Assembly (NCBI GenBank): GCA_050733195.1
Contig: JBOHSH010000021.1
Coordinates: forward strand, 14,387 to 78,386
DNA: 64,000 nt
Direction of reading: 5' to 3'
Source of the DNA: Gemmatimonadales bacterium
Lineage (GTDB): Bacteria; Gemmatimonadota; Gemmatimonadetes; Gemmatimonadales; GWC2-71-9
In this document: positions 4,097-59,498 of the stretch, piece after piece
How the letters are laid out: every line of letters starts with the position of its first letter
Position numbering within the stretch: the first letter of the stretch is position 1
Made by a program: the position numbers and the translations under genes
The notes under the pieces: model-generated
Seen by the model: the letters and a program-made list of their open reading frames with translations, nothing else
Databases searched by the model: none
What the model was told of the DNA's origin: nothing

Positions 4097-5128
4097 GTGC
4101 CGAACACGCTCACCGACATCACGATCATCGGCGCAGGCCCGACCGGGCTCTTTGGCGCCTTCTACGCCGGCATGCGGGGCGCCTCGTGCCGGCTGGTCGA
4201 CGCGCTGCCGGCCCTCGGCGGCCAGCTCATGGCGCTCTACCCCGAGAAGTTCATCTTCGACGTGGCGGGGTTTCCCCGCGTGCTCGCGAAGGATCTCGTG
4301 AAGGACATGGCGGAGCAGGCGCTTCAGTTCGGCTGCGAAGTGCGCCTGGACGAGGTGGTGACGGCCCTCACGCGCGAGGGCGATGCCGGTCCGTCGGGGC
4401 ACTTCCTCCTCTCGACCGACCGCGCGGTCCATCCGACGCGCACGATCATCATCGCCGCGGGAATCGGCGCGTTCGAGCCGCGGAAGCTGCCCGCCGAGGG
4501 GCTGGAGCCGTGGGAAGGCCGCGGACTCTTCTACAAGGTTCTCGACCCGAAGCTGTTCGCCGGCCAGCGGGTCCTGGTCGTGGGGGGGGGCGATTCAGCC
4601 TTCGACTGGGTGGTGCACCTCGAGGATGTCGCCGCGTCCGTGATGCTTATCCACCGTCGCGACGGATTCCGGGCGCACATGGCGACGGTCCGGCAGGTCG
4701 AACGCATGCAGCGGCAGGGCAAGTGCGTCGTGCGGACCTTCTGCGAGGTGAAGGCCATCGAGGGGAACGAGAAAGTCGAGCGGGTGATCCTCCACGACAC
4801 CAAGACCGGCGCCCTCGATACTCTGCCCATCGACGCCGTCATCCCTCAGCTCGGCTTCCATTCCGACCTGGGTCCCATCAAGAGCTGGGGTCTCGATACC
4901 GAGAAGGCCGACATCAAGGTCGACCGGGTGATGCTCACCAGTGTCCCGGGGATTTACGCCGCGGGCGACATCGCGACCTACGAGGGCAAGCTCAAGCTGA
5001 TCGCGACGGGGGCGGCGGAGGCCTGCACGGCCGTGAACCACGCCGTGCACTGGCTCGACCCCAAGCGGAAGATGAACCCCGGGCACAGCTCGGAGCTCAA
5101 GATCTTCGCGACCCAGCAGCACGGCTAG
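4097..5128 (+). CDS. Ferredoxin-NADP+ reductase, thioredoxin-reductase-like type
   Basis: ITIIGAGPTGLFGAFYAGMRG...GGQLMALYPEKFIFDVAGFP and a second dinucleotide fold VLVVGGGDSAFDW. The length and C-terminus match the YumC-like family. Confidence 0.85.
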   Translation: MPNTLTDITIIGAGPTGLFGAFYAGMRGASCRLVDALPALGGQLMALYPEKFIFDVAGFPRVLAKDLVKDMAEQALQFGCEVRLDEVVTALTREGDAGPSGHFLLSTDRAVHPTRTIIIAAGIGAFEPRKLPAEGLEPWEGRGLFYKVLDPKLFAGQRVLVVGGGDSAFDWVVHLEDVAASVMLIHRRDGFRAHMATVRQVERMQRQGKCVVRTFCEVKAIEGNEKVERVILHDTKTGALDTLPIDAVIPQLGFHSDLGPIKSWGLDTEKADIKVDRVMLTSVPGIYAAGDIATYEGKLKLIATGAAEACTAVNHAVHWLDPKRKMNPGHSSELKIFATQQHG

Positions 5129-5257
5129 GGGTTCTGGGTTCTGAGTACTGGGTTCTGGGTTGTCGATTTCGGACATCGAACTCAGAACTCAGAACTCAGA
5201 ACTCAGAACTCAGAACTCAGAACTCAGAACTCAGTGCATGGCCAGAACCCAGAACTC
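5129..5257. repeat. Heptamer array with inverted arms: 5 x GGGTTCT-type, a 15-nt palindromic core, 8 perfect AACTCAG, then AGAACCC AGAACTC
   Basis: Read directly from the sequence. It fills the entire convergent spacer between the reductase stop (5128) and the dacB stop (5256-5258). Confidence 0.95.
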
Positions 5258-6791
5258 ACTGTCGTCCGATTTCCACTACGAGGCTGTCGATCTGGCGGTT
5301 TATGGCGGCTCCGCCAAGATCGTGATTGTTGGTGAGGATCGAGAACACGCGGATCCGTCCCTTCGGCAGGGTGACGTAGCCCGACAGGGCATTCACCCGG
5401 AAGATCGTTCCCGTCTTGGCGAAGACCCGGCCCTCGACCGGCGTGGCCACCATCCGGCGCTCGATGGTGCCGCTCCGGCCGGCGACCGGGAGCGCGTCAG
5501 CGAAGGCCGCGAAGTTCGGATGGCGGCGCATCCAGAGCAGGAGCTTCGCGAACGCCATGGGGGAGACCACGTTCCCGTGGGAGAGGCCCGACCCGTCGCG
5601 CGGAGCCAGCTGGGTTGAGTCGAGGCCGACCGAGTCGATCAGGAACCGGCGTTCGACCATGAGCCCGGAGCGCCAGGATCCCTCTCCGCCGAACCGGCGC
5701 CCCAGCTGCTTCAGGAGCATCTCGGCGAAGAGGTTCTGACTGGGTCCGAGGATCGGGACGAGCCACTCCCGGAGCGGACGCGATTCGATCTCGGCGATGG
5801 GCGTGGCTTCCCGCGCCGACCGGTATCGCAGGGAGTCCGTTGTGGACAGCGTGGGGCCGAGCACTGCGATCCCCGCCTCGGCCAGCGCCGCGCGCAGGGC
5901 GACTGCGGCGTAGCGATTGGGGTCCGGCAGGGCGACGAAGGAGGTCCGTTCGGGACGCCCGAGCGCCATTCGGCCCAGAGCCCAGAGCCGGTGCTGGTCG
6001 CGGTCGCCTCCGATATCGAGGGCGAAGCCGCTGTCGGCCGCGGTGGTCCTCGTCCGGTTCTCGAGAACGAGATCGCCGAAGGCCGGGGTTGCGGAGATCC
6101 GCCCGGGTGCGCCGACCGAGTCCCCCGGTCCCCAGCGGATATCGACGCTGTTGTCGTTGAAGGCGAGGGCGGAGACCGGCGCGGCGTACCACCAGACGAG
6201 ATCGCCCTGCTCCCAGCTCTCGTGCAGGACGGTGGGCTCGAAGAAGCTGCCGTCCCCGACGATCGCCCCCGTGATGGTTCGGATGCCCGAGGCCCGGATC
6301 CGGCTCGCGAGCTCGCGAACCCTGGTCATCGGGTCCCGCTCGCAGACCCCGGCGCGCGCGGTGTCGGCGCCGAAGCAGCGGCGGCTCCAGGTCGGGTCGC
6401 CCCGTCCGTAGAGCACCAGGTCCCCTCGTAACACGCCGTTCGTGACCGGCCCGGTGCCGTACACGCTGGTGGCGACCCGGCTGTCCGGGGGAAGCAGCGC
6501 CGCCGCGGCCGCGCTCACCAGGAGCTTGGTGTTGCTCGCGGGGACGAAGAGCCGGGTGCCGTTGCGCTCGAAGAGGACCTTCCCGGTGGTGTCGAGCACG
6601 ACCACCCCCCACTGATGTCGCTCGAAGCCGGGCGCGTCGAGGAGGCGGGTCAGGCGCCCGGATAACGACTGAGCGAGGAGGGAATCGGTCGCTGGAGCGA
6701 CCGGACCGTAGAGGCTCGCGACCAGGAACGCCACCCGAATCGCCGGACGGCCCGGTCTACGCAAGCCGCACCCGGGGATCCACTCGAGCAT
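5256..6791 (-). CDS. dacB: D-alanyl-D-alanine carboxypeptidase/endopeptidase, PBP4 (peptidase S13)
   Basis: VPASNTKLL (SxxK), GSGLSHGN (SxN) and AKTGT (KTG), plus a signal-peptide-like N-terminus. The start at 6791 overlaps the upstream permease by 35 nt; the alternative GTG at 6734 is not excluded. Confidence 0.85.
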   Translation of the reverse strand: MLEWIPGCGLRRPGRPAIRVAFLVASLYGPVAPATDSLLAQSLSGRLTRLLDAPGFERHQWGVVVLDTTGKVLFERNGTRLFVPASNTKLLVSAAAAALLPPDSRVATSVYGTGPVTNGVLRGDLVLYGRGDPTWSRRCFGADTARAGVCERDPMTRVRELASRIRASGIRTITGAIVGDGSFFEPTVLHESWEQGDLVWWYAAPVSALAFNDNSVDIRWGPGDSVGAPGRISATPAFGDLVLENRTRTTAADSGFALDIGGDRDQHRLWALGRMALGRPERTSFVALPDPNRYAAVALRAALAEAGIAVLGPTLSTTDSLRYRSAREATPIAEIESRPLREWLVPILGPSQNLFAEMLLKQLGRRFGGEGSWRSGLMVERRFLIDSVGLDSTQLAPRDGSGLSHGNVVSPMAFAKLLLWMRRHPNFAAFADALPVAGRSGTIERRMVATPVEGRVFAKTGTIFRVNALSGYVTLPKGRIRVFSILTNNHDLGGAAINRQIDSLVVEIGRQ

Positions 6792-20588: not shown

Positions 20589-20962
20589 TCGGCGTGGGTA
20601 TCGATCTCGTCGAAGTCGCCGACGCCGATCGGCTGCTGGTGCGCTGGGGCGAGCGCCTGCTGGCCAAGGTGCTCACCTCGGACGAACGGGAGTACGTCCT
20701 GAGCCACGAGTTTCCCGAGAAGCACATCGCGGTGCGGCTCGCCGCAAAGGAGGCTGTCTACAAGGCCCTCGCCCCGCTGCCCGATGCCCGCGGCGTCGGC
20801 TGGAGGGATATCGAGGTCGTCCGGGCCCTCGACGGGCATCCCTCCGTCCGCCTCCACGGTCTCGCCGCCCGGATCCAGCAGCGGGACGGCCCGTTTCGGA
20901 TCTCGCTGTCCCTCTCGCATACCTCGCAGACGGCGGGGGCAGTTGCCGTCATCGAGCGTTGA
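20579..20962 (+). CDS. acpS: Holo-[acyl-carrier-protein] synthase
   Basis: MALIGVGIDLVEVADADRL...ERE...FAAKEAVYKAL...ISLSHT...A.AVAVIE pattern. The ATG at 20579 overlaps the upstream gene by 10 nt. Confidence 0.85.
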   Translation: MALIGVGIDLVEVADADRLLVRWGERLLAKVLTSDEREYVLSHEFPEKHIAVRLAAKEAVYKALAPLPDARGVGWRDIEVVRALDGHPSVRLHGLAARIQQRDGPFRISLSLSHTSQTAGAVAVIER

Positions 20963-20984
20963 CGCTGACGGTTGACGGTTGGCG
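20958..20984. repeat. GTTGACG heptamer array (4 units, one of them 6 nt)
   Basis: GTTGACG CTGACG GTTGACG GTTGGCG. The acpS stop codon TGA is inside the first unit. Confidence 0.85.
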
Positions 20985-21044
20985 GGGGCTGGCGGGGTTC
21001 GTGCAGCAGGCGCTCTAGGAATTCCGACGATTCGACTCTAGTTT

Positions 21045-24097: not shown

Positions 24098-24139
24098 GGG
24101 TTCTGGGTTCTGAGTTCTGGGTTCTGGGTTCTGGGTTTT
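24098..24139. repeat. GGGTTCT heptamer array (6 units)
   Basis: GGGTTCT GGGTTCT GAGTTCT GGGTTCT GGGTTCT GGGTTTT, starting 3 nt from the lgt start codon. There is no complementary arm at this locus. Confidence 0.95.
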
Positions 24140-24163: not shown

Positions 24164-24203
24164 GCTCCCTAGCTCCCTAGCTCCCTAGCTCCCTAGCTCC
24201 CTA
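24164..24203. repeat. GCTCCCTA octamer array (5 units)
   Basis: Five perfect units. On the minus strand they read TAGGGAGC. The array straddles the tsaD stop (24193-24195) and encodes its last residues, GLGS. Confidence 0.95.
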
Positions 24204-28572: not shown

Positions 28573-28575
28573 GAC

Positions 28576-28596
28576 GGTGACCGGTGGCCGGTTACC
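28576..28596. repeat. GGTNACC-type heptamer triplet (GGTGACC GGTGGCC GGTTACC)
   Basis: Occupies most of the 33-nt thiG-rsmB spacer. It is nearly self-complementary. Confidence 0.8.
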
Positions 28597-28605
28597 GGGG
28601 TGCGG

Positions 28606-34251: not shown

Positions 34252-35281
34252 CGAAGAGCGCGGCCTGCCCTTCTCCTCCGGGGCGCGCCGGCGGCGTGAT
34301 GCCGAAGCGCCGGTAGGCATTTGCGGTCGCGAGGCGGCCCCGCGGTGTCCGCTCGAGGAATCCCTGCTGGAGGAGATAGGGCTCGTACACTTCCTCCAGC
34401 GTGCCGGCGTCCTCGCCGACGGCGGCGGCGATCGTGTTGAGGCCGACCGGGCCTCCCGAGAACTTCTCGATGATGGTGGTGAGGATGCGCGCGTCCATGT
34501 CGTCGAGGCCGAACTCGTCGACGTTGAGCCGCGCCAGCGCTTCGGCCGCCACCGCGGCGGTGACCACGCCGTCGGCCTTGACCTGGGCGTAATCGCGCAC
34601 CCGGCGCAGGAGCCGGTTCGCGATCCTGGGCGTGCCGCGGCTGCGCCGGGCGAGCTCGGCGGCACCCTCCGTCTCGATCGCGACCCGGAGAATGCCCGCC
34701 GACCGGAGCACGATCTTCGCGAGATCCTCGGGCGGATAGAAGCTCAGCCGTTCCACGATCCCGAACCGCGCCCGCATCGGCGGCGTGAGCTGCCCGAACC
34801 GGGTGGTTGCGCCGACCAGGGTGAACCGCTCGAGCTGCATCGGAATGGTCTGGGCGTTGGGGCCGTCGCTGATCCGCACGTCGACCCGATAGTCCTCCAT
34901 GGCGGGATAGAGGAACTCCTCGAGCTGGGGCCGGAGCCGGTGGATCTCGTCGATGAACAGGACGTCGCCGTCGCCGAGGCCGGTGAGGAGGCCCACGAGA
35001 TCTCCCGGCCTCTCCAGCACCGGCCCCGAGGTCGTGCGGATCTGGACCCCCATCTCCTTCGCGAGGAGCAGGGCGAGCGTCGTCTTCCCGAGCCCCGGCG
35101 GTCCGAAGAAGAGGAGATGGTCGAGCGGCTCCCGCCGGCCCCGCGCCGCGTCGATGGCGATCTGGAGCGACGCCTTGAGCGGCGCCTGGCCCACGAATTC
35201 GTCGAGCCGCGAGGGCCGGAGGGCCGCATCGGCGCTGCCCTCCTCGGGAAGCGCGGCGGGGGTCGTGATCTCTAGAGGCAT
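34244..35281 (-). CDS. ruvB: Holliday junction branch migration helicase RuvB
   Basis: [12 protein letters not shown], Walker [16 protein letters not shown], Walker [27 protein letters not shown]. Confidence 0.95.
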
Positions 35282-35437
35282 GTTCTGAGTTCTGAGTTCT
35301 GAGTTCTGGGTTCTGGGTTCTGGGTTCCGGGTTCTGGGTTCTGGGTTTCGGTTCCAGGGACTCAGGTCCGCCCGTGCCGTGAAACCAGCTCTGGCACGAA
35401 GCCAGAACCCAGAACTCAGAACTCAGAACTCAGCACC
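35282..35437. repeat. Largest heptamer array: 11 x GTTCTGR-type arm, 44-nt core, 5 x CAGAACY arm
   Basis: Read directly from the sequence. The left arm is 35282-35358 and the right arm is 35403-35437, its reverse complement. The array occupies the whole spacer between the small Zn-ribbon gene stop and the ruvB start codon. The plus strand carries six GGG tracts with 4-nt loops. Confidence 0.95.
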
Positions 35438-40805: not shown

Positions 40806-41770
40806 AGGTGCTGCCGGTGCTGGTTGTCGCCTCCTTCGATGAAGCACACCACGCCCACGCGGCGCAGCGCTGCCGGGCCCTCGAGCGCCTGGGGTGCCGG
40901 GTGGAGGTGTTCGATCTGCTGAAGCGCCCCGGGCTCCTCGGGCGGCTGGCCGGCAACGATCTTCGCTCCCGGCTGCTCCGGAGCGTGGAGGCCGCCAACG
41001 CGCGCCTCGTGCTCGTCATCGGCGCTCCGGAGCTCGAGCCCGATCTGGTGACCACGCTGCGCAAGGAGACCCGGCTCCCCTGGGCCAACTGGTTTCCCGA
41101 CGACCTTCGGACGGCGTACGACGCCTGCCGGCGCGCCGCCGCCTACGATCACGTGTTCGTGACGGGATCCGACGTGGCGGCCCGCATGGAGACGGAGCTC
41201 GGCCGGCCGGTCGAAGTAGTGCCGTTCGCGGCCGACCCCTCCGTCTATCGCCCGCTCCGCTCCAAGGATCAGTACCGCGCCAATGTCGTCTTCGCCGGCT
41301 CCGCGACGCCGCGGCGGGAGCTGCTGCTCACGGGGCTCACCGGGTTCGGTCTGGCGCTCTGGGGGCCCGGCTGGCGGCGCACGACGCTCAAGGATTACTG
41401 CCGCGGCGAGGTGGCCAGCACCGACGATTACGTGCGGGCCTACGGGGGCGCGTCCGTGGCGGTGAACATCCACCACACGGCGGGCGGCAACGGGGCGGAC
41501 GAAGGCACGGTGAATCAGCGGCTCTTCGAGATCGCGGCCATCGGCGTGCCCCAGGTCGTGGACGCGCGGGCGGATCTGCCGGCGATGTTCCAGACCGGCG
41601 AGCAGGTGATGGTCTTCCAGGATGCGGCCGAGCTGCGCTCGCTCGTGGAGGCGGCGCTCCACGATCTCCCGTCGATGGAGCCGATCGCCGCCGCGGCGCG
41701 ACGGGAGGCGCTGGCGCGGCACACGTACATGCATCGGCTCACCCGGATCGTCGACTCGGTGACGCGTTGA
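40802..41770 (+). CDS. CgeB-like glycosyltransferase (DUF3880 / Glyco_trans_1_2 type), copy 1
   Basis: Tail of ORF 39965..41770 from the ATG at 40802 (ATGA overlap with the msbA stop). WANWFPDD, VVFAGS...R, VNIHH, NQRLFEIAAIG and a C-terminal HTY..R. The layout is shared with copy 2. Confidence 0.65.
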   Translation: MKVLPVLVVASFDEAHHAHAAQRCRALERLGCRVEVFDLLKRPGLLGRLAGNDLRSRLLRSVEAANARLVLVIGAPELEPDLVTTLRKETRLPWANWFPDDLRTAYDACRRAAAYDHVFVTGSDVAARMETELGRPVEVVPFAADPSVYRPLRSKDQYRANVVFAGSATPRRELLLTGLTGFGLALWGPGWRRTTLKDYCRGEVASTDDYVRAYGGASVAVNIHHTAGGNGADEGTVNQRLFEIAAIGVPQVVDARADLPAMFQTGEQVMVFQDAAELRSLVEAALHDLPSMEPIAAAARREALARHTYMHRLTRIVDSVTR

Positions 41771-41800
41771 CGGTTGACGGTTGAGAGTTGACGGTTGAAC
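41766..41800. repeat. GTTGACG heptamer array (5 units)
   Basis: GTTGACG GTTGACG GTTGAGA GTTGACG GTTGAAC. It essentially fills the 36-nt convergent spacer. The upstream gene's TGA lies in unit 1. Confidence 0.95.
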
Positions 41801-47810: not shown

Positions 47811-48635
47811 GTGTCAGCTCATCCCGCCCGGCTTCTCGACGACCGGCGACTCCTGGCCGGTCTCCTGCTCCTCGGACTCGTCATCCTGGCGGGCGTCTTC
47901 GCGCCCTGGCTCGCCCCCGCCGACCCCGTCGCGGGCGACCTCGCGGCCTACCTCAGAGGCCCGGACGCGGACCATCTGCTGGGTACGGATTCCCAGGGCC
48001 GCGACGTCCTGAGCCGGGTGCTCTACGGGGCACGCATCTCCCTCGTCGTGGGGCTCGTTTCCCAGAGCGTGACCCTGCTGCTCGGGGTGACCTTGGGCCT
48101 GCTCGCGGGGTGGTACGGCCGTTGGGTCGAGTCGGGGATCATGCGGTTCGCCGACGTCACGCTCGCCTTCCCGACGCTGCTCCTCTTGATCGCGATCGCG
48201 GCCGCGGTTCCACCCTCGCTCACGGTCACCTTTGCCGTCATCGGATTCGTGGGCTGGGCGGCGATGGCCCGGCTGGTGCGGGGCCAGGCGCTGGTCCTGC
48301 GGGAGACGGAATACGTCGCGGCGGCTCGGGCGCTCGGCGCCCCCGCGCGGCGCATCCTGCTTCGGCATCTCCTCCCCAACCTCCGCGCCCAGGTGATCAT
48401 CGCCGCCACGCTCGGCGTCGCGGCGGCCATGATGGCGGAGGCCGCGCTCTCGTTCGTCGGGCTGGGTGTGCAGCCGCCCACGCCGAGCTGGGGCAGCATG
48501 GTCGCGGAAGGCCGGGACCTCCTGCGGGTGGCCCCCTGGGTCTCGGTGGCGCCGGGTCTTGCGCTGGGCGCCGCGGTGCTCGGCCTCAACCTCGTGGGCG
48601 AAGGCCTCCGGGAGCGCTGGGAGCCGAGACGGTGA
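47811..48635 (+). CDS. Peptide/nickel ABC transporter permease, DppC/OppC-like (orphan)
   Basis: LLGTDSQGRDVLSRVLYGARISL, AFPTLLLLIAIAA, YVAAARALGA...LLRHLLPN. The GTG at 47811 is preferred; the track start at 47784 would overlap the divergent patatin gene. Confidence 0.8.
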   Translation: MSAHPARLLDDRRLLAGLLLLGLVILAGVFAPWLAPADPVAGDLAAYLRGPDADHLLGTDSQGRDVLSRVLYGARISLVVGLVSQSVTLLLGVTLGLLAGWYGRWVESGIMRFADVTLAFPTLLLLIAIAAAVPPSLTVTFAVIGFVGWAAMARLVRGQALVLRETEYVAAARALGAPARRILLRHLLPNLRAQVIIAATLGVAAAMMAEAALSFVGLGVQPPTPSWGSMVAEGRDLLRVAPWVSVAPGLALGAAVLGLNLVGEGLRERWEPRR

Positions 48636-48658
48636 CGGGTGACCGGTAACCGGTAACC
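48631..48658. repeat. GGTNACC-type heptamer array (GGTGACG GGTGACC GGTAACC GGTAACC)
   Basis: Read directly from the sequence. The permease TGA lies in unit 1, and TGA/TGA/TAA/TAA at 7-nt spacing cover all three frames. Confidence 0.9.
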
Positions 48659-48673
48659 GAAGGCCCCGGCCGT

Positions 48674-50271: not shown

Positions 50272-50325
50272 GGGGCAACAGTAGGGGGATGAGCGGGAAG
50301 CGGTCAATGTGTAGGGGGAGCGTGG

Positions 50326-50413
50326 GTGCTGAGTTCTGAGTTCTGGGTTCGAGCGCCTGCCGGGGTGTCATTCGCCGATCATGGCCGGATCCCAGAACTC
50401 AGAACCCAGAACC
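50326..50413. repeat. Heptamer array with inverted arms (4 x GTKCTGR-type, 39-nt core, 3 x CAGAACY)
   Basis: Read directly from the sequence. It lies in the divergent tyrS/PBP1A spacer and ends 15 nt before the PBP1A ATG. Confidence 0.9.
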
Positions 50414-50428
50414 CCTTACTTTTCCCCC

Positions 50429-52628: not shown

Positions 52629-53876
52629 ATGGCCGGCGCCCCGCTCCGCGACGCGGCGATCCTCGTCGACGAAGGCCGCATTGCCGCCGTCGGTCCGGAC
52701 TCCTCGGTGCCGGTGCCGGACGAAGCCCGGCGCGTTCACCTGGGCGAGGCGATCCTCCTCCCCGGTCTCATCAACACCCACACCCATCTCGAGCTCACGG
52801 GTCTCGACGCGGGGAGGCCCGACGATGATTTCACGGTCTGGATCCGGCGGATCCGCACCCTCAAGGAAGCGCGCACGGCGGAGGAGTACCGCGCCGCCGC
52901 GGAGCAGGGCCTCCGGGACTGCTGGGCCGGCGGCGTCACCACCGTCGCGGAGACCGGCGACTCGGGCGCGGTGCTGCGTGCGCTCGCCGAGCTCGGCGGG
53001 AGCGGAATCGTGTACCAGGAGGTCTTCGGACCCCACCCGGTCCAGGCGGAGGAGAGTCTGGACGGACTCCGCCGCAAGGTCGCGGGCCTTCGGCCCTGCG
53101 CACGCGACCGGGTTCGCATCGGCGTGTCGCCCCACGCGCCATACACGGTGAGCGGGATCCTCTACCGGGCCGTCGCACTGTGGGCGCGCTCGGAGGGACT
53201 CCCGCTCGCCGTGCACCTGGCCGAGTCGCGCGCGGAGACCGAGCTCGTCGCCACGGGAACCGGAGCCTTCGCGGAGGCGTGGACGAAGCGGGGGATTCCG
53301 GTGCCGGAGCAGACGGCCGGACGGCCGGACGGCCGGACGGCCGGTGGCTTCCATTCACCGGTGCGATACCTAGACTCTCTACGGGTCCTCGGTCCCGACA
53401 CGCTCTGCATCCACACCGTGCAGCTCGACGCCAAGGACGTGAAGGTGCTGGCTTCGCGCGGGGTGGCGATCGCCCATTGTCCGGTGTCGAACCGCCGGCA
53501 TGGCCACGGCGACGCCCCGCTCGACGCCCTCAGGAGGGCGGGGCTCCGGATCGGCGTGGGCACCGACTCGGTTGCCAGCGTGGGGCGGCTCGATCTCCTG
53601 GCCGAGGCGCGCGCCGCCCGGGGGCTCGCGGGTCTGTCGGCCGGGGAGGCGCTCGAGCTCTGCACCCTGGGCGCCGCCCGGGCGCTCGGACTCGAATCGG
53701 AGGTCGGGAGCCTGTCGCCCGGGAAATGGGCCGATCTGGCCGCCGTGGTTCCCGGCCCCGGAGCGGGCGATCCGGAGGAGGGGGCGCTGGCCGCGACCTC
53801 CGGAGACGTCGTCCTCACGGTCGTCGGGGGCCGGATCGTTCACGACCGCTTGATCCGGGGCCGGGGACTCTGGTAG
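52629..53876 (+). CDS. Metal-dependent amidohydrolase (chlorohydrolase / nucleoside-deaminase-like family)
   Basis: LLPGLINTHTHLELTG (HxH), VSPHAPYT, VHLAES, IHTVQL, GVGTDS. The exact substrate cannot be inferred. Confidence 0.75.
   Translation: MAGAPLRDAAILVDEGRIAAVGPDSSVPVPDEARRVHLGEAILLPGLINTHTHLELTGLDAGRPDDDFTVWIRRIRTLKEARTAEEYRAAAEQGLRDCWAGGVTTVAETGDSGAVLRALAELGGSGIVYQEVFGPHPVQAEESLDGLRRKVAGLRPCARDRVRIGVSPHAPYTVSGILYRAVALWARSEGLPLAVHLAESRAETELVATGTGAFAEAWTKRGIPVPEQTAGRPDGRTAGGFHSPVRYLDSLRVLGPDTLCIHTVQLDAKDVKVLASRGVAIAHCPVSNRRHGHGDAPLDALRRAGLRIGVGTDSVASVGRLDLLAEARAARGLAGLSAGEALELCTLGAARALGLESEVGSLSPGKWADLAAVVPGPGAGDPEEGALAATSGDVVLTVVGGRIVHDRLIRGRGLW
53312..53343. repeat. GACGGCCG octamer x4 inside the amidohydrolase CDS
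   Basis: Four perfect units encoding TAGRPDGRTAG. The same unit forms the arms of the repeat at 1086-1210. Confidence 0.9.
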
Positions 53877-54458: not shown

Positions 54459-55103
54459 CTATTCCGGCGTCCCCCCGATCGAGAACTTCTCGGTCCGCAT
54501 CTCGAGCTCTTCCCAGGGCAAACCGGCCATTCTGAGGAGCAGCCGGCGGAGACTCCGCGCCAGCGGGCTCCGCTCGCGCTGCGCGTTGGGCTGCCCCGCG
54601 AGGAACTGCTCGAGCTCGTCCATGTCCTCGTCCGTGAGCGCGGTGATTCTGAGCCGCACGGTGTAGTAGAAGCTTCCGGCCCTCCGGGGGAGCACCTCGA
54701 CACTCCGCGGCGTGGCCATGTAGCGCTCGAGCTCGGCCCGGGTCGGGAACCGGCTCTCCGTGGTTCCCGCCAGCAAAATGGTGGTGACGCGGTACTGCTC
54801 TTCGAGCGGCTCCCGCTGGATCACCATCGACCATTCCGTCGCCCGCTGGAACTCGTCGATCCAGCCCTCGCGCGAGCGCCAGATCTCCACCTTGAACGCC
54901 AGCCGGATCGGGAACGCCTGGTCGAGCGCTTCGGACCAGCGTTCGTCGCGCAGGAGGTTGGTGACGCGCACGAGGGGCTCCCGCCCCGTGCCGGGCGTGG
55001 CCGAGGGCATGAGGCTCACGACGAGCCCGACCCGCGGCGACTGGGCCGCCGCGGTGCCGCCGGCTCCGAAGACCAGCGCGAGAAGGAGTCCGGCGCGTCG
55101 CAT
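54459..55103 (-). CDS. Secreted DUF4390-like protein
   Basis: Tail of ORF 54459..55220 from the ATG at 55103 (signal peptide [21 protein letters not shown]). The assignment rests on my recollection of the family's block layout and needs an HMM check. Confidence 0.5.
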   Translation of the reverse strand: MRRAGLLLALVFGAGGTAAAQSPRVGLVVSLMPSATPGTGREPLVRVTNLLRDERWSEALDQAFPIRLAFKVEIWRSREGWIDEFQRATEWSMVIQREPLEEQYRVTTILLAGTTESRFPTRAELERYMATPRSVEVLPRRAGSFYYTVRLRITALTDEDMDELEQFLAGQPNAQRERSPLARSLRRLLLRMAGLPWEELEMRTEKFSIGGTPE

Positions 55104-56863
55104 CAGAAGCGGCGCTGCAGCCGGACGGTGATGGTGAGCGGCCGGCCGTCGGTGAACGGCTGCGCGATGTACACGCCGATGCCGCCGGCATCCATGCCGA
55201 AGCCGAGGTCGTACTTCCACTCGTCCAGGTTGGGGAGGCGGTCGCTCGGCACCCGGCCGGGTCCGTCACCCGCGAGCCACGCCTTGCCGGCGTCGCCGAA
55301 GATCACCACGTCCGGCTCGACGATGCCCAGCAGCCGCTGCAGCCCGGCCAGATAGGGGTCGTTCGTGCGGAGGGGCAGACCGATCCGGCTCCTCGTCCGC
55401 ACTTCCAGCTGGACCGCGAGGAGGCGATCGCAGAGCGCGGGGTGAGCCGGATCGCTGAGCGTCGGCGGGACACAGTTGAAGGCCCGGAACGGATAGCCCG
55501 GCAGGATGTCCGGACCGCCGAGCGACAGCCGCCGCTGCACCGGCAACGGATCGCCGTCGAGCCACCCGCCCCCGACGACGCGAAGGCTGGTCCGCACCGA
55601 CGGGTTGAACCGGGCGTACCGGCGGGCGTCGACCCAGAAGCTGGAGAACGCGTACCGCTCACCGGCCGGGACCGGGTCGCGGACGTCGGGCGGCAGCGAC
55701 AGCGGTGACGCGTCCGTGCTCCGGCCGTGCTCCACGCGGGCGCGAACGAGCCACCCGGCGGTCGGGTGCACGAGATCGTTCCGCGTGTCGAGCGCGAGGC
55801 CCGCCCGCCAGGTGGTGTAGTGGCCGTCGTCGATGAGCGCGTTGGGCCGCCACGCCTGGTTGCGGAGCAGCGAGATCGGATCGTTCGCGGGGATGCTCCG
55901 CTCCGCCGCGCGGTCGAGCGATCCCTCCAGGGTCAGGTGCCGGGTCAGCGCGTACGACGCGTACCCGCCCACACCGGTCGACTGTACGTAGTCGCGGTAG
56001 TCGCGCTGCAGGAGGAACGACGCCCAGCCGGCTTCGCTTCGGGAAAGCGGGCTCTCTTCCGTCGGAGTCACCAGCCGGTAGAGCCGGCCGCCGAGGAGGA
56101 GGCGGCGGGATTCCCCGAACCGGAACTCCAGGCGCGACAGGTACCCGAAGTCGGCGCGGCGGTCGGAGCGATCCGGCGCGGTCCAGACGATCCCGCGCAG
56201 GTCGAGCCGGCCGTCCACGTCGGGCAGTCCTTCGCGGGCGATGGTCGGTCCGAAGACGAGCGGCAGGCCTTCGATCCGGTTGTAGGTCCTGCCCGTCTCG
56301 ATGTTGATGGTGGTCGTGAAATGTCCGCTGGTGATCGTGCGCCTGGCGGACGCGATCTCCCCCAGCGTAATGGGGCGGTCGCGGATCGCGAGCGTGCCGT
56401 CGTTCGCGCGGTAGAGCTGCGGCGTCTCGGCGTAGGCCCGGCGAGTCCCGCCCGAGTGGAGGCCGCCGGGGCGGAGGTCGATGCGCCCTCCCACCACCAG
56501 GACGTCCCCCTCCACGGCGCCGCCCGGCTCGATGACGAGGTCGCCGTTGATCACCGTGAGGGATCCGGCGATGGTGCCCTGGACGCGCAGGTTGCCGCGA
56601 TAGACCGCGACGGTACCGGTGAGCCGGGCCCCCGGCGGGAGGACGAAGTGCCCGCTGATCCGCGCGGTGAGGGAGTCGTTCCAGGCCGCCACCGCCTGCA
56701 GCAGGACGCCCCGGGGAAGCACGCCCGGACCGAGCGAGTCCGGCGATCGGGCCTCGGGTCGGATCCGGATCGGGGGCGGGAGCGTATCCTGGGCGGCCGC
56801 TGCTGCCGGCGTCGCAAGAGCGAGCGAACCCAGAACCCAGAACCCAGAACTCAGAACCCTCAT
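55103..56863 (-). CDS. Omp85-family outer-membrane beta-barrel with N-terminal bactofilin-like beta-helix instead of POTRA domains
   Basis: Tail of ORF 55103..57646 from the ATG at 56863 (ATGA overlap with the regulator stop). Signal peptide [26 protein letters not shown]-x-hydrophobic repeats [49 protein letters not shown]. The barrel has [14 protein letters not shown] and a terminal ...TVRLQRRF. Confidence 0.7.
56824..56858. repeat. CAGAACC heptamer array (5 units) inside the first 13 codons of the Omp85-like gene
   Basis: Plus strand reads GCGAACC CAGAACC CAGAACC CAGAACT CAGAACC. The sense strand reads ATGAGGGTTCTGAGTTCTGGGTTCTGGGTTCTGGGTTCGC. Confidence 0.95.
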
Positions 56864-58236
56864 AGTCCCAGCCTCTTCATCCGCCGGTAGAGGTTCGCCC
56901 GGTCGGTCTGGAGCGCCCGCGCGGCCTCGGCGACGTTCCCGGCCGCCCGTTTGAGCGCCGCGCCGATCAGCGCCCGCTCGTAGTCGTCGAGCACGTTGGA
57001 CAGCGAGCGCCCGCCGAGGTCCGCGATCGAGAACGACGTCCCCGACTCGGTCACCGTCGGGGCCTCGAAGCGGGGCGCGCCGGCTCGCGGCAGCACCTGC
57101 CGGACGAGCGCGGCATCCACCTCCTCGCCCCCCAGGATCGAGAGCCGCTCGACGATGTTGGCGAGCTCCCGCACGTTCCCGGGCCATTCGTAGGAGGCGA
57201 GCAGCGCGAGCGCTTCCGCCGTGAACCGGACGGGCTGGTGGGGACGCACCCGCTCGGCGAGGTGGGCCACGAGCTCGTTCAGGTCCTCGAGGCGCTCGCG
57301 GAGCGGAGCCAGCTCGATGGGGAAGACGTTGAGGCGGAAGTAGAGGTCCTCGCGAAAGGTGCCCGCGGTGACCGCCTGCTCGAGACGCTGATTGGTAGCG
57401 GAGAGAACGCGGATGTCCACGCGCTGCGAGCGCTCCGCCCCGACCCGCTGGATCTCCCCGGTTTCCAGCACGCGCAGGAGCTTGGCCTGCGCCTCGAGGT
57501 TGAGGTCTCCGACCTCGTCCAGGAACAGCGTGCCGCCGTCCGCGAGCTCGAAGCGGCCCAGCCGACGGTCGGTGGCGCCGGTGAAGGCACCCCGTTCGTG
57601 GCCGAACATTTCGCTCTCGACCAGATCGCGGGGAATCGCGGCGCAATTGACGGAGACGAACGCCCGTCCCGCCCGGAGGCTCGCGCGATGAATGGCGTGG
57701 GCGACGAGCTCCTTCCCGGTGCCCGACTCCCCCATGATCAGCACCCGGGCTTCCGTGGGCGCCACCTGGCCGATCAGGCCGCGAACCGCCTGCATGCGCC
57801 CGCCCGCGCCCACGAGCTCGGCGCGGGGGCCGAGCTGCGATCGCAGAGCGCGGGCTTCCGCCCGGGCGCGGGTCAGCTCGAGTGCGGACCGCAGCGCCAC
57901 CAGCACCGCTTCCGGGGTGAGCGGCTTCTCGAGGAACTGGAAGGCGCCGAGCTTGATCGCGCGCACCGCGTCCGTGAGCTGCGCTTTGCCGCTCATCATG
58001 ATGACCGGCGTCGTGCCGTCGCGCTCCCGGATCTGCTTCAGGGTTTCGAGCCCGTCCGGGCCGGGCGGCATCTGCAGATCGAGCATGATGGCGTCGGGGT
58101 GTGCCTGGTCGAGCATCAGCAGCGCGGCATTGCCGTTGGGGGCCTCGTCCGCCTCGAATCCTTCCGAGCGGAGCAGGGCGGCGAGCATGCGGCGGATGTT
58201 CGCCTCGTCGTCCACGATGAGCACGCGGGGCTTCAT
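56860..58236 (-). CDS. Sigma-54-dependent response regulator (NtrC/NtrX family)
   Basis: Receiver domain VLIVDDE...[10 protein letters not shown]. Canonical AAA+ motifs [38 protein letters not shown]-terminal [25 protein letters not shown]. Confidence 0.9.
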
Positions 58237-59498
58237 TCGGTCCTCCGTCGCCGGTCGGCGACGCGACGTTCGATAGAGGGAGTGCGGGTCCCTACGGCGG
58301 GCGCGGCCTCGAGGGTTCGGGGGAGGCGGATCGTGAAGGTCGCACCGCCTCCCGGCGTCTCGGAAACCTCGATCGTTCCGCGATGGAAATCCACCGCCTG
58401 CTTCACGATGGCCAGGCCGAGCCCGGTGCCCCCCGCCTTGTCGGTGAAGTACGGCTCGAAGATCCGGCTCCGCTTCTCCGCCCGGACGCCGGGACCGTGA
58501 TCCGCCACCGACACGCGGACGCCGTCGCCGTCCGGAAGGATCGCGATGTCGAGCGCACCTGTTCCACCGCTCGACTCGGCCGCGTTCCGGATGATGTTGG
58601 CGAAGGCGCGCCGGAGCGGCTCATAGTGACCCACGATGTGCAGGCTCCCGGGGTGCTCCGCGATGGCCGCCCGCATCTCCGCGGGCAACGAGGTGCGGGC
58701 CAGCTCCCGCAGCAGCTCGCCCAGGTCCACCTCCGCCGCTGGACCCTCCGGCAAACGTCCGAGGTTGGCGAAGTCGCGGGCGAGCTGTTCCAGCCTCGCG
58801 GTCTCCACGCGGAGCACCTCGAGCGCTTCCTGATCGTCTGGGCGTGCCCCCCGACCCAGGGACTGAATGGCGAACCGCACCGGTGTGAGCGGGTTCTTCA
58901 TCTCGTGCGCCACCCGCCGGGCCACTTCCCGGAAGGCCCGGAGCCGCTCACCCTCGAGCTCGGCCGCGCGGGCTTGCTGGAGCGACGCCGCCAGCTCGCG
59001 AAGGGCGACCCGGAGCGCCGCCAGCTCCGGCGGGCCGCCGCGATCCGGGGTCTCCGGAAGCGGCTGGCTCCTGCGGATCCGGCCGGTCCAGCCGATCAGC
59101 TCGTCGATGGGATTGGCGAGCTGCCGGGAGAGGTTCCCGGCGAGCCGTACCGACAGGTAGACGAGGAGGGCGCCGAGCCCCGTGACCGCGATGGCCAGGG
59201 CGAACGCGCGGTAGCGGGCGAAGAAGAGGGCCCGGCGCGAGGTCGTCAGCGCCGCGTTGAGCGAATCGACGTGGGAGTGGAGTGCCCGCTGCTCCGGCCG
59301 GCTCAGCCTGGCGGTATCGAGCACCCTCAGGAGCTGCCGGCCGGAGCTCCGGACCGGCTCGAGTGCCGCCTGGCTGGCGCGGGCCGGGTTATAGCGCAGC
59401 AGGGTCGCGGCCCAGCCCACTATCAGCACCGAGGAGGGCAAGGCGCCGAGCAGGAGCAGGGCAATCAGGAGGCGGTGGCGAAACGAGAGGGCGGCCAC
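58233..59498 (-). CDS. Sensor histidine kinase (2 TM, HAMP, HisKA, HATPase_c)
   Basis: H-box [14 protein letters not shown]-box [10 protein letters not shown]-boxes DHGPGV and [13 protein letters not shown] overlap with the regulator start. Confidence 0.9.

Follow-up and report, generated by a model that had tools for sequence, protein, structure and literature searches.

A five-unit heptamer array that opens the coding sequence of an Omp85-like outer-membrane protein gene in a Gemmatimonadales bacterium is probably a boundary-anchored member of a dispersed class of 7- and 8-nt repeats, translated by way of a stop/start overlap and held in frame by selection. The array lies in a 64,000-nt stretch of contig JBOHSH010000021.1 (assembly GCA_050733195.1; hereafter, the window), at the junction between this gene and the gene of an NtrC-family response regulator. 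An initial annotation of the stretch had instead read the array as a slipped-strand on/off switch and as the seat of an mRNA G-quadruplex at the start codon. The junction comprises the following features:

56825-56859, minus strand: five-unit heptamer array, GGGTTCT GAGTTCT GGGTTCT GGGTTCT GGGTTCG, followed by CTCGCT; the G-rich strand is the sense strand
56860-56863, minus strand: ATGA overlap, in which the Omp85-like ATG (56863-56861) overlaps the regulator TGA (56862-56860)
56792-56863, minus strand: predicted Sec signal peptide of 24 codons with cleavage before QDT, by inspection
55103-56863, minus strand: Omp85-like gene for a 586-aa outer-membrane protein whose N-terminus contains a bactofilin-like segment
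56860-58236, minus strand: NtrC-family sigma-54-dependent response regulator gene, 458 aa

The 5’ edge of the array directly follows the ATGA at the regulator stop, and the array makes up codons 2-13 of the Omp85-like gene. Re-reading of the minus strand agreed with the initial annotation in finding five translated 7-nt units from codon 2, Tandem Repeats Finder reported the same repeat (56826-56859, period 7, 4.9 copies, 92% matches, score 61), and the coordinates confirmed that the ATG overlaps the stop of the upstream sigma-54 regulator. The repeat is imperfect: with GAGTTCT as unit 2 and a final G in unit 5, the longest perfect run spans only ~2.9 units (~20 nt). Read in any frame, a heptamer array yields the same cycle of seven residues, here GFWVLGS. 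Gain or loss of a single unit does shift the frame of the gene, as had been annotated, with the first premature stop at codon 102 (one unit fewer) or codon 404 (one unit more), and the four GGG tracts with loops of 11, 4 and 4 nt (motif G3-N11-G3-N4-G3-N4-G3) are present as described. The GAGTTCT variant unit also supplies the regulator with a second in-frame TGA, two codons past its stop (CTA TGA GGG TTC TGA; 56848-56862, minus strand).

By inspection, the N-terminus is laid out as an MR n-region, a 15-residue h-region, TPAAAAA, the cleavage site and QDT, with the array supplying the n-region and most of the h-region. For comparison, we gathered 80 orthologous loci from GTDB species representatives, together with JGI and Logan contigs, found through the mature part of the protein. 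The NTGA overlap (ATGA or GTGA) is present at 36 of the 37 near-clade junctions at which the regulator end was located, whether or not they carry an array; the open reading frame (ORF) is open and in frame from this start in the orthologs; and an AAQD(T/S) motif is kept at the same alignment position across them. The window gene offers no alternative in-frame start between the array and the hydrophobic region. Since the NTGA start is conserved, the frame is open from there and the peptide up to AAQD(T/S) resembles a signal peptide, the array is, on sequence grounds, translated and supplies the n/h region of a predicted signal peptide of 24 residues. The conserved start and motif position in orthologs thereby uphold the initial proposal that the array encodes the signal peptide. 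Array-less orthologs of 77% identity have leaders of like length (24 residues in P0002, 23 in P0003), suggesting that the array replaces an ordinary leader and adds no length to it.

The deposited annotation, from the NCBI Prokaryotic Genome Annotation Pipeline (PGAP), begins elsewhere: the protein (P0001, Gemmatimonadales bacterium) is given as 539 aa from the GTG of codon 48, which leaves the repeat out. This GTG start is probably wrong, and the practical outcome of our analysis is that a conserved gene for an outer-membrane protein has its start codon and its signal peptide corrected. PGAP and IMG callers often overlook the NTGA start when a repeat follows it (56722-56863, minus strand, in the window; L010, L082-L086, L109 and L111 among the compared loci), giving products of 538-577 aa that lack a signal peptide. 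Short calls of 538, 554, 570, 575 and 577 aa were considered as candidate frameshifted OFF alleles; in the DNA of all of them (P0121, P0122, P0165 (at L010), P0175 and P0142) the NTGA is in frame, and they were set aside as start-calling artefacts.

The repeat recurs well beyond the junction. The 14-mer GRGTTCTGRGTTCT, allowing at most one mismatch, occurs 36 times in the window, as compared to 0.05 occurrences expected from shuffled sequences. The array is therefore beyond chance and belongs to a dispersed family, rather than being singular to the Omp85-like gene. These 36 matches form nine arrays at six loci within the 64 kb, next to lgt, tsaD, ruvA/ruvB, tyrS, a PBP1a-type gene, an S13 peptidase gene and an oxidoreductase gene, as identified by Pfam. 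A crude gene map based on third-codon-position GC content overlooked several genes, including the Omp85-like one, and was used only where Pfam confirmed the gene. Besides the junction array, members of the family include:

5129-5163, plus strand: five copies of GGGTTCT that form the left arm of a hairpin, 1 nt past the stop (TAG) of an oxidoreductase gene on the plus strand
5177-5257, minus strand: eight copies of GAGTTCT (5177-5232) plus GAGTTCTGGGTTCT, which form the right arm of this hairpin, at the TGA (5256-5258) of an S13 peptidase gene on the minus strand
24098-24139, plus strand: six copies adjoining the GTG start (24095) of minus-strand lgt; AGAACCC on the sense strand
35282-35347, plus strand: 9.4 copies adjoining the ATG start (35281) of minus-strand ruvB; AGAACYC on the sense strand
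35404-35431, minus strand: four copies past the ruvA stop (35620), with the G-rich units in the sense direction of ruvA-ruvB; pairs with 35282-35347
50324-50351, plus strand: four copies upstream of minus-strand tyrS; C-rich on the sense strand
50394-50414, minus strand: three copies, C-rich when read in the sense direction; the ATG (50429) of a plus-strand PBP1a-type gene follows 15 nt on

The last two arrays lie upstream of the divergent genes tyrS and the PBP1a-type gene. Inspecting the orientations revealed a polarity rule, which all eight arrays with an assignable neighbor follow: an array directly 3’ of a stop codon has its G-rich strand (GRGTTCT) in the sense orientation, and one directly 5’ of a start codon has it in the antisense orientation. 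The junction array obeys this rule relative to the regulator stop. Where arrays come as inverted pairs, they fold into very stable hairpins, both between convergent genes (5126-5260, plus strand; -61.4 kcal/mol, z = -6.4) and between ruvA and ruvB within their operon (35279-35428, minus strand; -74 kcal/mol, z = -7.8). Such hairpins may act as terminators, attenuators or stabilizers. The junction array has no inverted partner and no unusual structure, its folding energy matching that of shuffled sequences for both the array (z = -0.5) and the initiation region (z = -0.07). A start-sequestering hairpin, formed by CUGGGACU with the array, appeared in the minimum-energy fold of the initiation region, yet it was rejected as no better than in shuffles. 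An Rfam scan of the whole window returned zero matches, and by eye no sigma-54 promoter (GG-N10-GC spacing) was seen in or beside the array.

Arrays of 7- or 8-nt units with other sequences also occur in the window, all at gene boundaries: GCTCCCTA in five copies after the tsaD stop (24164-24203), GACGGCCG in four copies (53312-53344), the inverted pair AGACGGGC/GGCCGTCC after a stop (1087-1208), CCGGTNA adjoining an ATG (28575-28598), CAACCGT after a stop (41760-41798), CGGTGAC overlapping a stop (48630-48659) and GTTGACG (20958-20985). An apparent exception to the polarity rule is found at 41760-41798, where a C-rich sense strand follows a stop.

The regulator and Omp85-like genes belong to a four-gene operon, whose order (kinase, regulator, Omp85-like, DUF4390) is also found in relatives; conservation and synteny of the operon extend over more than 200 Gemmatimonadales contigs. 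The outer genes of the operon in the window are:

58233-59498, minus strand: sensor histidine kinase gene, first of the operon; its stop overlaps the regulator start
54459-55106, minus strand: DUF4390 gene, last of the operon; it starts at the Omp85-like TGA

Within the window and the 80 compared loci (605 kb in total), tandem arrays of at least three copies had a period of 7 in 60 cases and of 8 in 23, with at most four cases for any other period. By size, period-7 arrays numbered 32 with three copies, 32 with four, 13 with five and 15 with at least six; the junction array has five. When 79 operons were aligned on the Omp85-like gene, 15 arrays fell at the kinase/regulator boundary, 26 at regulator/Omp85-like, one at Omp85-like/DUF4390, 24 after DUF4390 and about none within gene bodies. 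At the regulator/Omp85-like junction, the distance from the NTGA to the start of the array is 0-7 nt. In the orthologous operons, a stop is usually followed first by a G-rich array, whose partner, when present, is the C-rich complement.

Unit sequences vary between lineages and are uniform inside arrays. The orthologous junctions carry the 7-nt units ACGGTCR, GTGAACG, GGTGAGC, GGGGAGC, CGGTGAC, GTCAACG, GGGGTCA, GGTTCCG, GGCGGTC and CTCGGCR, and the 8-nt units GGGGARCC, GGGGCAGA, GTGGGCCR and GCACTGCC. Some junctions harbor a second array, TGCCTGT in 8.7 copies, which encodes the h-region as CLLPVACCLL. A junction array was carried by 11 of 36 species representatives (about one third) and by all ten JGI contigs that contain the junction; within one cluster of proteins at 90% identity, L112 has an array and L113 and L114 have none.

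Several relatives translate their repeats in forms other than that of the window. In L087-L090 (P0124, 623 aa), the junction has an inverted pair of which each arm is translated in frame (MSRFRVPGSGFRV...NPALRTRNSEQS); in L039, L053 and L055, the C-rich arm of an inverted pair encodes the h-region (FPLSLFPLPLLLPL in L039); and in L096, an 8-mer array of GTGGGCCR with at least ten units is translated, with a 24-nt period, from the ATGA onward as VGQWAGGPVRQWAGGPVRQWAGGP at the N-terminus of the ortholog. One locus of a distant clade, L047, was a candidate out-of-frame array; its array lies in a real spacer of ~100 nt upstream of the start, where frame is irrelevant, and the candidate was dropped.

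With respect to the reading frame, we compared 34 distinct array-bearing translated alleles at the junction. The frame is intact from the NTGA in 33; one (L081) has lost its ATG by a T-to-G change; none is frameshifted. This places the frequency of OFF alleles below ~9% at 95% confidence (0 of 33), and such alleles would not have escaped notice, as the search for loci relied on the mature protein. In L081, the T-to-G change (CTAGGAG) destroys both the regulator TGA and the Omp85-like ATG, and IMG thus called a 567-aa read-through regulator; the change may be genuine or may stem from low coverage. Unit counts among relatives, a comparison that the initial annotation had suggested, yielded no out-of-frame length variant. 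Nine JGI contigs, from separate samples and representing one relative of 74% identity (GGGGTCA, six copies), all have a junction of 176 nt with an invariant unit number, and a second relative, which translates an inverted pair, is represented by four contigs identical to one another. In the orthologs P0002, P0003 and L113/L114, the DNA that codes for the signal peptide is free of repeats.

In arrays whose length is free to vary, slippage is active. The relative represented by the nine contigs also has an untranslated array, located ~60-90 nt past the DUF4390 stop in the right arm of an untranslated inverted pair, and here near-identical strains differ by a clean 7-nt polymorphism: CTGAGGA is present three times in L081 and L085, as opposed to twice in L082, L083, L084, L091 and L093. 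Given that slippage is active in the class and that no frameshifted allele was seen, out-of-frame variants of the translated array must arise, yet they do not reach consensus.

The account we favor runs as follows. Tandem repeats of 7 or 8 nt are dispersed at gene boundaries throughout Gemmatimonadales, where they would grow and turn over by replication slippage. The junction copy follows the polarity rule relative to the regulator stop, and as the next gene starts within that stop (ATGA), there is no spacer. For want of a spacer, the array falls where constraint on the next gene is lowest and is translated as its n/h region, for which the GFWVLGS cycle appears hydrophobic enough. Purifying selection would keep the array length in frame, so that an occasional slipped allele would be a null mutant and not a state of a programmed switch. 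The GGG tracts would come along with the unit sequence and would not constitute a dedicated G-quadruplex regulator. Such arrays are repeatedly translated as signal peptides with the frame unbroken, which makes the operon a natural comparative system, in which to ask whether the arrays function and how a microsatellite writes a working targeting sequence.

Several observations weigh against this account. The roles it gives to slippage and selection are ones that we infer. Arrays are far commoner at the regulator/Omp85-like junction than at the Omp85-like/DUF4390 junction (1 of 76), although the N-terminus of the window’s DUF4390 protein likewise resembles a signal peptide; passive tolerance alone does not account for this contrast. 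The translated array of one relative (L081-L086 and L091-L093) has 10 variable sites in 52 nt versus 10 in the next 639 nt, a ~12-fold higher density, and this excess of substitutions points to some local process that the account leaves unexplained. The frame data come from relatives only, the closest found to the window allele being 77% identical as protein; a scan of JGI metagenomes with the Omp85-like protein returned nothing above 68% identity, the best match among GTDB species representatives was 65%, and an exact look-up of the window’s regulator protein found zero records. Finally, assemblies give the majority sequence, in which a minority of OFF cells is invisible.

As for the hypervariable array itself, the same variant units of GGGGTCA occupy different positions in the nine strain contigs, with the length unchanged. 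A diversity-generating retroelement was considered in passing only; neither a template repeat nor a reverse transcriptase was noticed near the locus.

Programmed phase variation, in which slipped-strand mispairing would often alter the unit number and toggle the Omp85-like and DUF4390 genes while leaving the regulator intact, was the switch put forward initially. The unit is indeed not a multiple of three, the array occupies a 5’ coding position in a predicted outer-membrane protein gene, and one unit more or less truncates the product. Slippage also occurs in the class, as indicated by the one-unit polymorphism of the untranslated array, the eightfold GAGTTCT run at 5177-5232 and the homogeneous, lineage-specific units. 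There is precedent, too: NeuO of the Escherichia coli K1 phage CUS-3 has a translated 5’ array, (AAGACTC)n, with 3-53 perfect units (mode 20), is OFF in 65.6% of 64 complete genomes, and has neighboring lengths that co-exist in one culture. The junction array resembles it in being a translated 5’ coding heptamer array that permits a full-length product only at a frame-keeping unit number, but it has five imperfect units with a perfect run of ~2.9, none of 34 related alleles is frameshifted, and the unit number is invariant in nine strain contigs. In Haemophilus influenzae, the heptanucleotide repeat (ATCTTTC)n likewise adjoins surface-protein genes, HMW1A and HMW2A; it lies between promoters, counts 13-24 or more units and grades transcription, and, unlike the junction array, it is untranslated. 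Moreover, the same repeats flank housekeeping genes with fixed polarity, the operon is conserved and syntenic, unlike accessory contingency genes, and close orthologs manage without the repeat. We therefore consider a switch that silences the two distal genes unlikely, and caution that a frame-sensitive 5’ repeat is insufficient to call a contingency locus. The proposed G-quadruplex, by which the four GGG tracts (codons 2-12) would fold in the RNA and control translation initiation, fares worse. Its motif is present and the published GGGNATC class forms G-quadruplexes in vitro with a preference for four units, but ViennaRNA with its G-quadruplex model switched on selected no such structure in the minimum-energy fold of either the array or the initiation region. 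Motifs of this kind (G3+, loops of 1-12 nt) are common, with 45 in the 64 kb or 0.7 per kb; GGG tracts are missing from about half of the orthologous arrays (e.g., GTCAACG, CGGTGAC, ACGGTCA or CTCGGCR); and the shoulder at four to five copies is alike for units with and without G3 tracts. On this modeling and comparison, control by a G-quadruplex is highly improbable.

Two further explanations grant the repeat a role at the boundary. The G-rich array after the regulator stop could be a functional element on the RNA or DNA level, through translational coupling, RNA processing or stability, Rho loading or protein binding, with signal-peptide coding as a side effect. The strict polarity, the distance of 0-7 nt from stop or start codons, the enrichment of arrays at three of the four operon boundaries with near absence from the fourth, the very stable hairpins of paired arrays and the recurrence of unrelated unit sequences at the same junction are all consistent with such an element, and the literature suggests that the short tandemly repeated repetitive (STRR) sequences of cyanobacteria stabilize transcripts or couple translation. 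But the junction copy lacks an inverted partner and folds like shuffled sequences, many orthologs are array-free, the window has no Rfam match and the published analogues have no demonstrated function, which leaves this explanation doubtful. In a broader and equally tentative version, stop-anchored 7- and 8-nt arrays, often in hairpin-forming pairs, would be an operon-punctuating system across Gemmatimonadales with units turning over by concerted evolution; at stop/start overlaps they might serve as both intercistronic signal and signal-peptide code, and live slippage might provide heritable tuning or rare silencing of the distal genes. That the deposited annotation is right after all, with the gene starting at the codon-48 GTG and the array being an untranslated spacer before a shorter protein, seems to us very improbable. 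Automated calls speak for it, since the 539-aa product (P0001) was called and IMG made the same kind of call (538 aa) for relatives; yet this start would strip the signal peptide from an Omp85-family protein, NTGA is in frame in every short call examined, residues 25-47 are conserved across orthologs, and an untranslated array should show frame-breaking lengths, of which there are none among the 34 alleles.

The closest parallel to the repeat class we favor was described by Rehm et al. (2015, PLoS One; PMC4692102), who reported dispersed G-rich heptamers, GGGAATC in Xanthomonas and GGGGA(C/T)T in Nostoc. These lie with the G-rich strand on the coding strand 0-50 bp past a stop, overlaps with the stop included, or on the non-coding strand 0-50 bp before a start. 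They often comprise four to five units, some form inverted pairs, and their neighbors are mostly housekeeping genes; the authors left the function open and judged phase variation unlikely. The Gemmatimonadales repeats share with this GGGNATC class the 7-nt unit, the leading G tract, the many boundary copies, the polarity, the size of about four units and the inverted pairs. They differ in host phylum (Gemmatimonadota), in the unit GGGTTCT and in the many 7- and 8-nt units of relatives, half of them without G tracts. Above all, the junction copy lies inside the Omp85-like ORF, in frame and translated, because the start of that ORF overlaps the upstream stop. In the literature on Gemmatimonadetes/Gemmatimonadota, we found no description of such arrays. 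Polar heptamer and octamer arrays at gene boundaries, earlier described only in Xanthomonas and cyanobacteria, thus also occur in Gemmatimonadales, where they use many lineage-specific units instead of one.

Among cyanobacteria, STRR heptamers are tandem 7-bp intergenic units that also occur in operons, as in the hupS-hupL spacer, and can form hairpins; roles in transcript stability or translational coupling have been suggested. STRR families are few and genus-conserved, whereas the Gemmatimonadales units turn over between close lineages. To our knowledge, STRRs have not been reported to encode signal peptides. A further class, the TAACTGA direct repeats of Beggiatoaceae, Cyanobacteria and Bacteroidetes (MacGregor 2015; PMC4679880), sits a few nucleotides before the starts of numerous unrelated genes, essential ones among them, and a post-transcriptional role was proposed for it. 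That class differs in having one fixed unit across phyla, mostly in 2-6 copies, in being confined to 5’ untranslated regions and in having no reported stop-codon rule.

The genes of the operon warrant a few additional remarks. Pfam matches of the 586-aa protein to Omp85 and Bactofilin fall just under the gathering scores (for PF01103, 21.7 bits versus 24), and a search of NCBIfam with this protein returned zero matches; many homologs at 60-77% identity carry PF01103, and their NCBI names place them in the BamA/TamA family. The DUF4390 start reads TTC TGA TGC, the first codon at 55106 being CTG, with an ATG one codon on. Downstream of the operon, the relatives L081-L092 have an HNH endonuclease gene on the opposite strand. 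Contig CAVRAZ010000007.1 (L017), labeled ‘uncultured Gammaproteobacteria bacterium’, carries a Gemmatimonadales-type operon (56% identity) and is probably part of a mis-binned or mislabeled metagenome-assembled genome.

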